Below are positions 771 to 57,165 of a stretch of DNA of 64,000 nt, piece after piece (positions within the stretch are counted from its first letter, which is position 1; the number at the start of each line of letters is the position of its first letter). Made by a program: the position numbers and the translations under genes. The stretch lies in IMG/VR virus record IMGVR_UViG_3300033068_001013, positions 1,951-65,950 of that record; one strand, given 5' to 3'. Source of the DNA: a virus. Its lineage: Duplodnaviria > Caudoviricetes. The notes below the pieces were generated by a model that was not told the DNA's origin, did not search any database, and worked only from the letters and a program-made list of their open reading frames with translations.

Positions 771-1445
771 TTACCTCCGAGTTACTTTATAGTACTTAAT
801 CCCTCGAATAGATGGGCGTTGGGTGGATGCTAGAGTAAGTAATCCACGATCCCCCTCATATGCAAGAGTCACATACTTCTCCCCCATTACCTCACTGAGG
901 CTAGCTGCGAGCGGAGCAAGTTTTTCGTACATCACTTTTGCTCTCGTAGGATAGATCCAGTTCCCAACCAGATAGTACCTGCCGTGGTTGAATTCCACAT
1001 CGAGCGTAAGATCCCGATGTTTTCTTATCAACTCCGACATGTAGTCTCTTTCGGTTTTAACTCGCGCGATATCCTCATCGGGAGGGGAGATTACAAAAGC
1101 GGGGTCACGAGGGTCCACAATCTTTAGTCGCCTCCAACGTACATCAAACTCTTTCAACACTCTTTCAACGTTGAATAGATCCTCATTACGACTAATGTAA
1201 TATCCCCAAACTTGTTCTTCCGCGCCATCAACCCCTTGCACTATATAACTCCCCGATCCCCAATCAAACATCCGATTGAAGATATATTGCATAGGCACTT
1301 TAGCTGAACTTGACATTCTAAGTCCCATTAGGATCACCTCCTGTGCATCGTGAACATGAATCACCCGTATAAGCGGTCTCGCAATCCAAACATTGTTTCG
1401 CTTCAGCGGGAATGCAGGCTTGGTGGATGTATATCCACTCAACAC
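771..1445 (-). CDS. hypothetical protein (true start probably near 1325)
   Basis: ORF track; lies between the E2-like and E1-like genes with tight coupling. Confidence 0.6.
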   Translation of the reverse strand: MLSGYTSTKPAFPLKRNNVWIARPLIRVIHVHDAQEVILMGLRMSSSAKVPMQYIFNRMFDWGSGSYIVQGVDGAEEQVWGYYISRNEDLFNVERVLKEFDVRWRRLKIVDPRDPAFVISPPDEDIARVKTERDYMSELIRKHRDLTLDVEFNHGRYYLVGNWIYPTRAKVMYEKLAPLAASLSEVMGEKYVTLAYEGDRGLLTLASTQRPSIRGIKYYKVTRR

Positions 1446-55201: not shown

Positions 55202-55372
55202 ATAAGTCCTTTGAGTAAGGGGTGGGGGCTGCAGCTTCTTGAAACCCCCACCTCCTCTGCGCCAAAACGAACTGAGTCGGGGGATCGCCCCTGGAAATCA
55301 AAGAACAGTCTCAGTTCTATACCGAATGAACGCCTAGAGTTCCGACGTCCAAAGTGACTCGCGTGAGTCACA

Positions 55373-55444
55373 TACGCGACCAGGGATTTGAACCCTGATT
55401 ATCACGCCTAGTGGGTGATGGCTTACCAGTTAGCCGAGTCGCGT
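55373..55444 (-). tRNA. tRNA-like gene with CUA anticodon (amber suppressor-like, atypical loop)
   Basis: ACGCGAC/GTCGCGT acceptor, GGCT/AGCC D stem, CAGGG-TTCAAAT-CCCTG T arm, anticodon loop CA-CTA-GG with C31-C39 mismatch. Confidence 0.7.
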
Positions 55445-55445
55445 G

Positions 55446-55709
55446 CTAGAGGAAACTTTTTAAAGCACTTCCTAGAATAGAGCCCAGTAAACTGGGAGAG
55501 TTGGATTGTTGTAAGGCCCGTTGTAGGGCTTGTTGATGGGCATGTTGGATATGATATAGATTTTGCACAGCTTCGTAGTAGTCAAAGGGAGAGGGTTTAA
55601 TTGACTCCCTAAAAGCCTGTCTATCAAGTTCTGCATGATAGTCGAAGATGTCTTGAACAGTGACTTTAGGGGGTTGAGACATTGCGGATTGTTTTGTTTT
55701 GAACATCAA
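55446..55709 (-). CDS. hypothetical protein
   Basis: ORF track. Confidence 0.5.
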   Translation of the reverse strand: MMFKTKQSAMSQPPKVTVQDIFDYHAELDRQAFRESIKPSPFDYYEAVQNLYHIQHAHQQALQRALQQSNSPSLLGSILGSALKSFL

Positions 55710-55875
55710 AAATTTCTATCTCCATAGAACATTCAGGACAAGCTTCTATGTTTCCAACCTCATCTTCAAAGATGATTGATATTGGGATCAAGTCTGTGGA
55801 TTTTCCCGAAAGAATATCATCATCCTCTGAGACTCCACATATATCGCAATACTTTCGAAATCGAACTTCAATCAT
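55666..55875 (-). CDS. small Zn-finger protein
   Basis: CDIC...CPEC. Confidence 0.55.
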   Translation of the reverse strand: MIEVRFRKYCDICGVSEDDDILSGKSTDLIPISIIFEDEVGNIEACPECSMEIEIFDVQNKTIRNVSTP

Positions 55876-55894
55876 CTCATCACCTAATCTCTAA

Positions 55895-55968
55895 TCCGGA
55901 TAGCAGGATTTGAACCTGCGACCCCCTGTTCCCAAAACAGGTGCGCTACCAGACTGCGCCATATCCGG
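55895..55968 (-). tRNA. tRNA-Pro(UGG)
   Basis: CCGGATA/TATCCGG acceptor, GCGC D stem, CCTGT-TT TGG GA-ACAGG, TTCAAAT T loop. Confidence 0.95.
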
Positions 55969-56275
55969 AAAATCACCGGCCAGCTTCGACAACTGACTCC
56001 CTCGCGCGATGGGGCGATGCGGGTGTGCTGTTACGCTAAAGACTCCACGGCTAACCTTATCGTTACCAAGAGGGGTATGGTAGTTAGCCACCTTGCGGCC
56101 CTCTCGACTGGACAGGTGCGGCATTCCCTAATTGCAGAGCTGGGCGTCCATCTCCAGGTATTGATCAATCAGGGAAAGTCAGACTCGGTGGGTTTCCTCC
56201 ACCATGGCATCTGACCACGTATCGCGAGTCACTCTTTAAAGGGTGGCTGCTTCCAAGCCCACCTCCCCGCGTTCA
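55969..56275 (-). ncRNA. large structured ncRNA containing a 23S rRNA H42-H44 (L11-binding) mimic
   Basis: GCGGGGAGGTGGGCTTGGAAGCAGCCACCCTTTAAAGAGTG (56270-56230), then a 194-nt structured insert, then CGTAACAGCACACCCGC (56035-56019). Confidence 0.75.
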
Positions 56276-56286
56276 AAAATCTTGTT

Positions 56287-56410
56287 TACTGCGGACCGGA
56301 CTCGATACCGGCTCTGTTTCCATGAGTCAGTGCGATTCTGGCTAATTAAACCAGTCAGGCGGCTCGCACGTTTTTACGAATGCCCGCGTGTCCATCCACG
56401 CCGCCGCAGT
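56287..56410 (-). ncRNA. tRNA-like element with expanded core
   Basis: ACTGCGG/CCGCAGT acceptor, GCGT-GGATGGAC-ACGC D-like arm, GCCGG-TATCGAGT-CCGGT T-like arm, about 70-nt core. Confidence 0.55.
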
Positions 56411-56502
56411 TACATTGATTGTGGCCATTGTCCTATCACCACCTTATGGGCCTATGGTGACCTTCATCCCATCGCTTCTAGGTTAAGACAATGGCCACAA
56501 AC

Positions 56503-57165
56503 TTATTCCTCAATATTCCGAATCTGCGCCTGGACAGACTTCACTTCAGCATTCTTGGCATCATAGTACAGATGCGGATTGGCCTCAAGAAGTTCCAGGG
56601 TCTTCTCATCCAAAGTCCGTTCAGCTCGATAGCGAACAACCTCTTCGAGATTGAATGCTCGAACAGCCGCCTCACCCTGGATTTCAGTGTAAGACGTACC
56701 GCCTTGTTCATTCTCGAACGGAACCGAGCGAACCCAACGAGTCTTGGCGCGAGCCTGAAATCCCTCCGGGAGATCAAAAGCCGTCTTGACGTGATCGGCA
56801 TATTCGCCAAGGTTAGCAAAACGCTTCGTGGGATGTCCAGCCACTCGACACAGAACCGCCAGAGAGGACGTGGACTGTCCCGTCGGAACGCTGGATGAGG
56901 CATAGAAATCCTTGAGAAAACCACCCAAACCGCCATCATCCTTCACAAAGCGGGGCGAGAATCGAGCGACGATTCGAGTGCCTTTATCGTCACTCTTCAC
57001 ATAAATCGGTTCGCTCTGACCCCCGGTACGGAGAGTGAGGTGGACTGTATGAATCCCATCACTCGGAGGAGCCGGAGGAATCTGAATCATAGATCCATCC
57101 GGATCGAAATCCTCAACAGGGAGATCATTAAGACGGGGATCGTTAAGGTCAAAAACTTCAGACAT
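56503..57165 (-). CDS. putative ssDNA-binding protein (OB-fold, DUF669-like position)
   Basis: Position in the recombination module; acidic N-terminus, beta-rich core; no diagnostic motif. Confidence 0.4.
   Translation of the reverse strand: MSEVFDLNDPRLNDLPVEDFDPDGSMIQIPPAPPSDGIHTVHLTLRTGGQSEPIYVKSDDKGTRIVARFSPRFVKDDGGLGGFLKDFYASSSVPTGQSTSSLAVLCRVAGHPTKRFANLGEYADHVKTAFDLPEGFQARAKTRWVRSVPFENEQGGTSYTEIQGEAAVRAFNLEEVVRYRAERTLDEKTLELLEANPHLYYDAKNAEVKSVQAQIRNIEE

Follow-up and report, generated by a model that had tools for sequence, protein, structure and literature searches.

The 64,000-nucleotide stretch of phage DNA analyzed here (the window) represents most of a 65,950-bp IMG/VR virus record that is estimated to be 96% complete. 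On its minus strand lies a tRNA-Pro(UGG) gene (55894 to 55969; ARAGORN and Rfam, 70 bits), and 49 nt upstream of it is an RNA element that resembles the GTPase-associated center (GAC) of 23S rRNA. An earlier note, made from the sequence alone, had described the element as a GAC copy split by an insert, and the minus-strand layout that it gave reads exactly as stated. By direct reading, a 41-nt 5' half of the GAC copy, GCGGG-GAGGTGGGCTTGGAAGCAGCCACCCTTTAAAGAGTG (56270 to 56230), is followed by a 194-nt insert (56229 to 56036), which falls between nucleotides 1091 and 1092 of the 23S numbering, and then by a 17-nt 3' half, CGTAACAGCACA-CCCGC (56035 to 56019). The core in the note was 56019 to 56270; the covariance model R1, introduced below, sets the limits of the whole element at 56013 to 56276. 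The Escherichia coli sequence 1051 to 1108 given in the note proved correct on comparison with rrlH, and the window is identical to rrlH at 39 of 48 positions across 1056 to 1103. The compensatory changes it had listed are present as well, namely, a GCGGG/CCCGC closing helix and a U-A pair in place of A-U at 1090/1101. At 1058/1080, G-C likewise replaces U-A.

Each part of the ribosomal domain can be located in the window, always on the minus strand. The closing helix is formed by GCGGG (56266 to 56270, equivalent to 23S 1051 to 1055 at the top of helix H42) and CCCGC (56019 to 56023, equivalent to 1104 to 1108), whose pairs covary in the family. The H43-like hairpin, the "1067 stem-loop" (1057 to 1081), occupies 56240 to 56264 and is likewise supported by family covariation; its equivalent of A1067 is a G at 56254. 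Next comes the UUUAAAGAGUG segment (56230 to 56239, equivalent to 1082 to 1091), which holds the 1082-1086 tertiary pair, the A-minor adenines A1084 and A1085, the bulged A1088, and the 5' strand of H44. Within it, 1082-1086 covaries and GAGUG is kept in the family. A 189-nt branch (56041 to 56229) then separates 1091 from 1092, closed by G1091 pairing with the C at 56041 plus ACUC/GAGU, pairs that are also found in the seed members of R1. It is followed by a UUUAG linker (56036 to 56040), an instance of the conserved, family-specific C-UUURG signature, and by CGUAACAGCACA (56024 to 56035, equivalent to 1092 to 1103), which supplies the "1095 hairpin" and the 3' strand of H44, with A1095 at 56032 and covariation in its pairs. 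The C that precedes UUUAG forms a pair with G1091, and the final G of this linker forms one with C1100. The result is a three-way junction with a 189-nt branch and a UUUA linker, which refines the plain split of the earlier description.

The element is not part of an rRNA gene. No rRNA reached Rfam thresholds in the 64-kb window, where only tRNAs did, in agreement with the earlier statement that no other rRNA is present and that tRNA-Pro adjoins the element. A cmscan of 55300 to 56700 with all 4227 families of Rfam 15, followed up to an E value of 10, also returned only tRNAs, with no GOLLD, ROOL, large-subunit (LSU) rRNA, intron, or leader match. There was thus no LSU match either at the gathering threshold or at E ≤ 10, and the flanks are tRNA and noncoding sequence. 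The similarity to rRNA ends at the closing helix, and Rfam found no group I or group II intron in the insert.

We built R1 from 28 family members with short inserts, leaving the window out. In a cmsearch, R1 matched the window with 81 bits (E = 2.3e-24) over the full model (1 to 170), and this was the sole credible match in the 64 kb. Other members scored 79 to 128 bits, compared with 42 to 56 bits for genuine bacterial and archaeal 23S GACs, E. coli rrlH included. The R1 scores therefore quantify the mimicry and separate the family cleanly from rRNA. Long R1 matches in three genuine rRNAs (L032, L047, and L054) were 5'-half matches with a spurious 3' alignment. We also considered the T4 RNAs rnaC and rnaD as relatives and rejected them: the T4 tRNA region that contains them had no R1 match, and the motifs were absent.

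The window element belongs to a very large family of phage noncoding RNAs, whose carriers are large phages. We collected relatives with the two conserved halves, an approach that the earlier note had proposed, by exact-pattern scans for each half and subsequent removal of duplicates. The 5'-half pattern found 25 IMG/VR loci, and the 3'-half pattern found at least 119. Seven elements came from metagenome-assembled genome (MAG) or isolate contigs of a species-representative genome set, all within tRNA/tmRNA arrays, and the junction pattern of the window itself found 10 metagenome loci. After deduplication, at least 105 distinct elements remained, and their pairs covary as described below. In a blastn search of GenBank phages, three unrelated Pseudomonas phages in culture matched the 5' half within their tRNA clusters, and their loci share the order closing helix, GAC 5' half, insert, (C)UUUGG, GAC 3' half, closing helix. 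More than 15 cultured phages are now known to carry the element: Pseudomonas phages pf16, UNO-G1W1, and Milchi; Pectobacterium phage CBB; Cronobacter phage GAP32; Serratia phage BF; six Erwinia pEa_SNUABM phages and Kaldavass; Xanthomonas phages XbC2 and XaC1; Vibrio phage 2.275.O; Aeromonas phage 4_4572; and Paenibacillus phage Pd_22F. In every one the site is unannotated or lies under a short "hypothetical protein." Each of the five complete carrier genomes tested has exactly one copy. One IMG/VR phage contig (L129, 3839 to 4344, minus strand) holds two GAC-like elements in tandem, which differ in their 1082-1086 variant (AUAAU versus CUAAG) and in their inserts.

We aligned the 105 elements with MAFFT (alignment A1), imposed the rRNA secondary structure, and counted pairs. 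Standard pairs filled 92.6% of cells, versus 73.9% in column shuffles, and double-sided changes occurred in 14 of 21 pairs; none of 500 shuffles reached any of five covariation measures. When the 3' partners were slid by 1 to 3 columns, pairing fell to 32 to 63%. All eight pairs of the closing helix covary (1054-1105, for example, is GC in 69 elements, AU in 31, and UA in 5). In H43, 1058-1080 is GC in 38, UA in 38, AU in 23, and CG in 2; the pairs 1057-1081, 1062-1076, and 1064-1074 also covary, and G1059-C1079, U1060, and G1063-C1075 are invariant in the family. Only 56 of 105 elements have a standard pair at 1061/1077, as expected, since this pair is not Watson-Crick in the folded GAC. The rRNA tertiary pair 1082-1086 covaries too (UA in 65, CG in 24, and AU in 10). 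In the 3' half, 1092-1099 is CG in 103 elements and UA in 2, and the linker G can pair with C1100 in 105 of 105.

The nucleotides that hold the tertiary fold are retained. U1060, A1088, G1071, C1072, A1084, A1085, and the G1055-C1104 pair (with A1085) are invariant or nearly so. An intercalated A1088-U1060 pair and A-minor triples at the junction are features of the GAC (PMC1919483, PMC2175356), and the invariant nucleotides of the family match the triples described in PMC1919483. Loop bases are relaxed: 1067 is A in 78 elements, G in 22, C in 3, and U in 2; 1068 is G in 80 and A in 24; 1070 is A in 86 and G in 19; and no base is preferred at 1096 or 1097. In rRNA, A1067 and A1095, which contact factors and thiostrepton, are universally conserved; the window keeps A1095, and two members (L012 and L019) have G1095.

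Could the family adopt some other fold? Most members could form a competing pairing, UUAAAG/CUUURG, at the cost of the GAC fold, but the AUAAUG variants break it. Because 1082-1086 stays paired where UUAAAG/CUUURG breaks, the GAC fold is the selected structure, and we rejected the alternative. Unconstrained minimum free energy (MFE) folding of the window element was just modestly better than that of shuffles (z = -2.0) and did not recover the GAC fold, which depends on tertiary contacts. We conclude that covariation supports both the secondary and the tertiary pairings of the GAC-like fold and that the element is neither a chance resemblance nor a stray piece of rRNA. The R1 match, the relatives, and the covariation together support the proposal of a free-standing noncoding GAC copy in a phage.

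The family also departs from rRNA in a consistent way. A helix branches off between 1091 and 1092 in every member. The invariant G1091 pairs with a near-invariant C ahead of UUURG, and the last G of UUURG pairs with C1100. This last pair lets the "1095 hairpin" stack on lower H44 in the manner of rRNA, with the extra helix creating a three-way junction. Of the branch, the first four pairs are present in 28, 28, 26, and 20 of the 28 seeds, respectively, and C-UUU-R-G is invariant or near-invariant in the 105 elements, in part through ascertainment. Position 1101 is A (rarely G) in members versus U in genuine rRNAs of the same data. The window has GACUC...GAGUC-UUUAG and A1101; the branch, C-UUURG, and 1101 signatures occur in 105 of 105 elements and are absent from genuine rRNAs. 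Moreover, phages of Enterobacterales do not follow the AAAGAAAG...CUCAC variant of their hosts. These common signatures, taken with the lack of host-variant tracking, speak for one origin with later spread between phages, as opposed to repeated capture of rRNA.

About eight members have a hairpin at a second expansion site, 1077/1078, where CBB and GAP32 are one nucleotide short. The closing helix consists of 5 to 9 bp of free sequence, and the conserved lower part of H42 and the kink-turn are absent. Hence, only the minimal 58-nt uL11-binding domain has been copied, and the L10 site that the earlier note had included among the possible targets is not reproduced. Its reference to the thiostrepton site did not hold either: the window has G at 1067, a eukaryote-type base linked to thiostrepton insensitivity (PMC2175356). 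Since 1067 varies across the family, what is conserved is not a faithful thiostrepton or factor site.

Two kinds of GAC-like sequence outside the family came up in the searches. In a 1,460-bp contig of a Caryophanon MAG (L047, about 914 to 1054, minus strand), a genuine-looking 23S fragment departs from rRNA right after G1091 (GAGUG|AUAGCGAAC...); an intervening sequence at the phage branch site or a break in the assembly may account for this. Chromosomal contigs of Nostoc/Anabaena hold an insert-free, 56-nt GAC-like element outside rRNA operons (L033, 5447 to 5502, plus strand; L038, 5292 to 5347, minus strand; also L040 and L057), with a local Rfam LSU match of 53 bits and R1 scores of 42 to 44 bits. 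The L033 copy lies about 135 nt upstream of an operon that encodes an unknown 276-amino-acid protein and a ThiF-family protein, and an IS630 transposase adjoins it. This cyanobacterial element is a distinct kind of free GAC copy and might function as an RNA in regulation or immunity.

The insert is the variable part of the family, ranging from a plain hairpin of 24 nt to about 400 nt. Of the stems that the earlier note had drawn in the window insert, unconstrained MFE folding recovers two, GTCAGA/TCTGAC and TTCCCT/AGGGAA; a third, GGCTAAC/GTTAGCC, and the two pseudoknots that it had proposed are possible on paper. No close relative of the window insert was found: blastn among the 105 inserts, a search of IMG/VR through relatives of the adjacent 220-amino-acid open reading frame (ORF), and the metagenome scan with the window junction all led to elements with unrelated inserts, about 45% identical overall. 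By regular expression and alignment, 23 of 105 inserts share a module near their 3' ends, AGUR...RAG-NCACC-CCG-GNRA-CGG-UAAGG-N', whose N and N' positions covary as G-C, U-A, A-U, and C-G. The window has a divergent copy of this module (NCACC, a GNRA hairpin, and UAAGG-N') at 56055 to 56075.

A second motif in the insert recalls 23S rRNA's sarcin-ricin loop (SRL). The AGUCGAGAGGGCC sequence at 56097 to 56109 lies within two edits of SRL positions 2654 to 2667 of E. coli rrlH in a fuzzy match; matches within two edits occurred in 2 of 105 inserts versus 0.28 in shuffles. It reads AGU-CGAGAG-GGCC, with A2657 missing and G in place of A2665, so that the window copy cannot form the S-turn. The motif is best drawn as a hairpin with a GAGA tetraloop and an AGU bulge. 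Stem-closed SRL-type hairpins (GUA-N-GNRA-N'-GA) were found in the inserts of four members (L080, L089, L116, and L120), compared with 0.35 expected from shuffles. Those of L080 (GGUACGAGAGGAA, near insert nucleotide 225) and L089 (AGUACGGGAGGAA, near insert nucleotide 223) are convincing SRL hairpins with 5-bp closing stems and show the helix-closed bulged-G/S-turn motif of H95, AGUA-C-GNRA-G-GA(A/C), which the window copy lacks. By sequence, each of the two halves of the ribosome's factor-binding site is therefore represented in these large members.

Almost all members of the family lie within tRNA arrays and share the strand of the tRNAs. A tRNA lies within 300 nt of 57 of the 105 elements and within 3 kb of 71, many loci being incomplete, and all 477 tRNAs within 3 kb are on the strand of the element. 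In UNO-G1W1, the gaps to the flanking tRNAs are only 13 and 7 nt, which suggests that the family RNA is released by tRNA-processing enzymes. The window has tRNAs for Arg(UCU) and Pro(UGG) and one with a CUA anticodon (Rfam and ARAGORN); the Pro and CUA tRNAs are both on the minus strand, the latter further downstream of the element. The CUA tRNA (55373 to 55444, minus strand) is an amber suppressor that ARAGORN labels "Pyl" and that scores 44 bits as an Rfam tRNA. Recoding of TAG in the window genome was not supported: standard-code ORFs cover 91% of the window, and TAG ends 19 of 68 long ORFs. From its position, tRNA-Pro is likely a cotranscript of the window element that would supply an RNase P site.

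Upstream of the element, a 235-nt intergenic stretch (56271 to 56505, minus strand) is itself highly structured, with an MFE of -86.7 kcal/mol (z = -3.99; no shuffle out of 200 reached this stability). Its fold comprises a perfect 17-bp hairpin (about 56500 to 56420) and a multibranched, tRNA-shaped module (about 56410 to 56287), and no ORF with a family match lies in it. The upstream structure, the GAC-like RNA, and tRNA-Pro could form one polycistronic RNA precursor. A promoter and terminator scan found nothing above shuffle expectation. The neighbors in the window encode a family A DNA polymerase, about 30% identical to those of cultured phages, an AAA_24 protein, and small ORFs without a family match.

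What might this RNA do? When ORFs within 5 kb were clustered, no protein family recurred in more than 6 of the 105 neighborhoods. Neither the window genome nor five carrier phages contain a gene for an L11 homologue, and no ribosomal protein gene (PF00298, PF00542) was found in the window genome. A ribosomal L12 C-terminal-domain match (36 bits) is present in UNO-G1W1 (PP551948.2, 96300 to 96383), the sole carrier of this domain in the five records searched; it is absent from the window genome, pf16, CBB, and GAP32. Since no phage partner protein accompanies the RNA, it would act in trans on a universally conserved host component, and the partner is most likely a host component conserved across phyla.

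The pattern of conservation points to uL11. The conserved positions are those of the fold and of the surface recognized by the uL11 C-terminal domain, and the relaxed positions (1067, 1068, 1070, 1096, and 1097) are loop bases that contact factors and thiopeptides. For recognition, the C-terminal domain of uL11 uses the U1060-A1088 pair and, in the 1067 stem, the minor groove (PMC2175356). Bacterial L11 binds yeast GAC RNA, so that uL11-GAC recognition crosses the domains of life (PMC2175356), and one RNA could thus serve in any host. On the strength of this conservation pattern, the lack of a phage partner gene, and cross-domain recognition, we rank first a trans-acting, uL11-binding RNA, either a decoy or sponge or part of a uL11-containing ribonucleoprotein (RNP), and give this reading about an even chance. 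The RNA would be transcribed together with phage tRNA genes and probably released by tRNA-processing nucleases. Once free, with its GAC-like fold and one extra helix of free length, it would act off the ribosome as an imitation and bind host uL11 through the C-terminal domain of the protein. The captured uL11 would be titrated by the decoy or held in an RNP. One possible outcome is that ribosomes or RelA would be deprived of uL11 and the stringent response blunted. That uL11 capture, with an SRL replica in some members, serves as an antistringent or antidefense device, by stripping or bypassing an element needed by RelA and ribosome-linked defenses, we consider doubtful but possible.

Several points weigh against uL11 binding as the function. 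Very high RNA levels would be needed to titrate an abundant ribosomal protein. The expansion sites, 1091/1092 in all members and 1077/1078 in about eight, are in or near helices used by uL11 and the tertiary core, and a pure uL11 decoy leaves the universal extra helix and the C-UUURG linker unexplained. Finally, the invariance at 1084 to 1091 and in the 3' half is partly due to the way in which loci were ascertained, a bias that we lessened, without removing it, by examining, for each half, the loci that had been found with the other. Among 108 matches to the 3' pattern, all except one chance match have GAGUG in the 5' half. In the 5'-ascertained set, the 3' half does vary, with U-A at 1092-1099 in L021 and L026, G1095 in L012 and L019, and G1101 in three members.

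We weighed four other explanations. Phage tRNAs compensate for anticodon nucleases, and by analogy the RNA could be a decoy for something that attacks the GAC, such as a host defense or a toxin of a competitor with modifying or cleaving activity on H43/H44, or a thiopeptide that binds the GAC; whether free or joined to uL11, the RNA would then absorb the agent and spare the ribosomes. Its place in tRNA arrays, a known antidefense compartment, and its existence as a stand-alone gene without a phage partner protein fit this idea, and the chromosomal insert-free element that precedes a ThiF-family operon in Nostoc hints at other uses of free GAC copies. We know of no defense system that is aimed at the GAC, and to protect tens of thousands of ribosomes one for one is a demanding task. 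Toxins that target the GAC do exist, e.g., Tre23, which ADP-ribosylates H44 at 1095 to 1098 (PMC8661411). Yet the bases that such agents recognize are the least conserved in the family: 1067 is variable and G in the window, G1095 occurs in L012 and L019, and 1096 and 1097 are free. We therefore think a decoy of this kind rather unlikely. The same relaxed positions include the factor contacts, A1067 and the 1095-1097 loop, and so count against an imitation of the whole factor-binding site that would bind or misactivate EF-G, EF-Tu, IF2, RF3, or RelA off the ribosome. The SRL-type hairpins of L080, L089, L116, and L120 (4 versus 0.35 in shuffles) and the SRL-like 13-mer of the window, with its two edits, favor such an imitation, as do L7/L12 domains encoded by phages (bioRxiv 10.1101/174177), including one carrier here. 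However, a proper SRL hairpin is present in only about 4% of inserts, some of which are plain 24-nt hairpins, and without A2657 and A2665 the S-turn is impossible in the window copy. This leaves the explanation improbable.

The diversity of the inserts raises a different prospect, that the GAC fold is a compact, nuclease-resistant chassis, possibly stabilized by uL11, which displays a variable insert with a phage-specific function. Inserts of 24 to about 400 nt that fall into recurrent modules, one of them present in 23 of 105 members with internal covariation, would suit a chassis. Still, it is the GAC core that is conserved and not the insert, and members with bare 24- to 44-nt hairpins (L064, L090, and L149) retain the full core. 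Nor would a chassis need to preserve every rRNA tertiary nucleotide in phages whose hosts range from Pseudomonas to Paenibacillus to gut Firmicutes. We assign this possibility little probability. Might the element instead be captured rRNA without function (a pseudogene or an intron or intervening-sequence fragment) or the cis-regulatory leader of a neighboring gene? Its core is homologous to 23S rRNA, and ribosomal protein operon leaders that mimic rRNA are a known kind. However, rRNA does not flank it, Rfam detects no intron, and a tRNA rather than an ORF lies downstream, with no conserved adjoining gene. Phages of enterobacteria do not track the host AAAGAAAG/CUCAC variant. The A1101, C-UUURG, and 1091/1092 branch signatures, present in all members and absent from real rRNAs, point to one origin and long purifying selection. 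We regard captured rRNA or a leader as very improbable.

How does the family compare with known RNAs? With the bacterial 23S GAC (E. coli 1051 to 1108, the 58-nt uL11/thiostrepton fragment), the phage RNA shares the helices, the bulged A1088/U1060 pair, the junction adenines, G1071/C1072, and the 1082-1086 tertiary pair with the same UA/CG covariation. It differs in being a stand-alone gene in tRNA arrays, outside any rRNA; in its 1091/1092 helix, C-UUURG linker, A1101 for U, and free closing helix; and in its relaxation at 1067, 1068, 1070, 1096, and 1097. Ribosomal protein operon leaders are also off-ribosome RNAs that imitate a ribosomal protein binding site. The L10 leader (Rfam RF00557), for example, imitates the L10 site that adjoins the GAC. 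Such leaders, however, are cis-acting 5' untranslated regions that are only loosely rRNA-like, whereas the phage RNA is a nearly base-for-base copy with no downstream ribosomal protein gene and no Rfam match. GOLLD, ROOL, and T4 rnaC/rnaD occupy the same niche, on the same strand in phage or prophage tRNA arrays and with no known function, but have no sequence or structure relation to the phage GAC RNA. The earlier suggestion that the element might belong to GOLLD or ROOL was not borne out, as neither RF01998 nor RF03087 matched even at E ≤ 10. Sponge and mimic RNAs (6S RNA, CsrB/RsmZ, and the Y-RNA-like YrlA) follow the logic proposed here, in which a host protein is titrated or recruited by an abundant RNA that looks like its natural ligand. 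They differ in fold and target, and the protein partner of the phage GAC RNA is putative.

The other option in the earlier note, that the RNA is new, fits what we found. It belongs to no Rfam 15 family; neither Rfam 15 nor full-text literature searches yielded a description, and the GenBank records of carriers are unannotated at the site. One paper (eLife 2020, PMC7159879) was a false lead, in which "GTPase-associated" refers to proteins. RNA mimics and protein sponges follow a general logic that is already known. What appears to be undescribed, and new as a kind, is a gene by which a phage encodes a functional center of the ribosome as a free-standing copy, for which we found no precedent.

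A near base-for-base copy of a ribosomal center thus exists as a gene of its own in hundreds of phages, of which more than 15 cultured carriers are genetically tractable. The family is also a natural experiment on the GAC fold: it separates the nucleotides needed for the fold and uL11 from those needed for factors and reveals 1077/1078 and 1091/1092 as sites that accept a grafted helix. Reagents for a direct test of the hypothesis already exist, since the 58-nt GAC/uL11/thiostrepton system has classic status as a model in biochemistry. If uL11 is bound, the RNA would represent a new viral means of manipulating translation or the stringent response, and some of the "dark" RNA encoded in phage tRNA clusters would gain a function.

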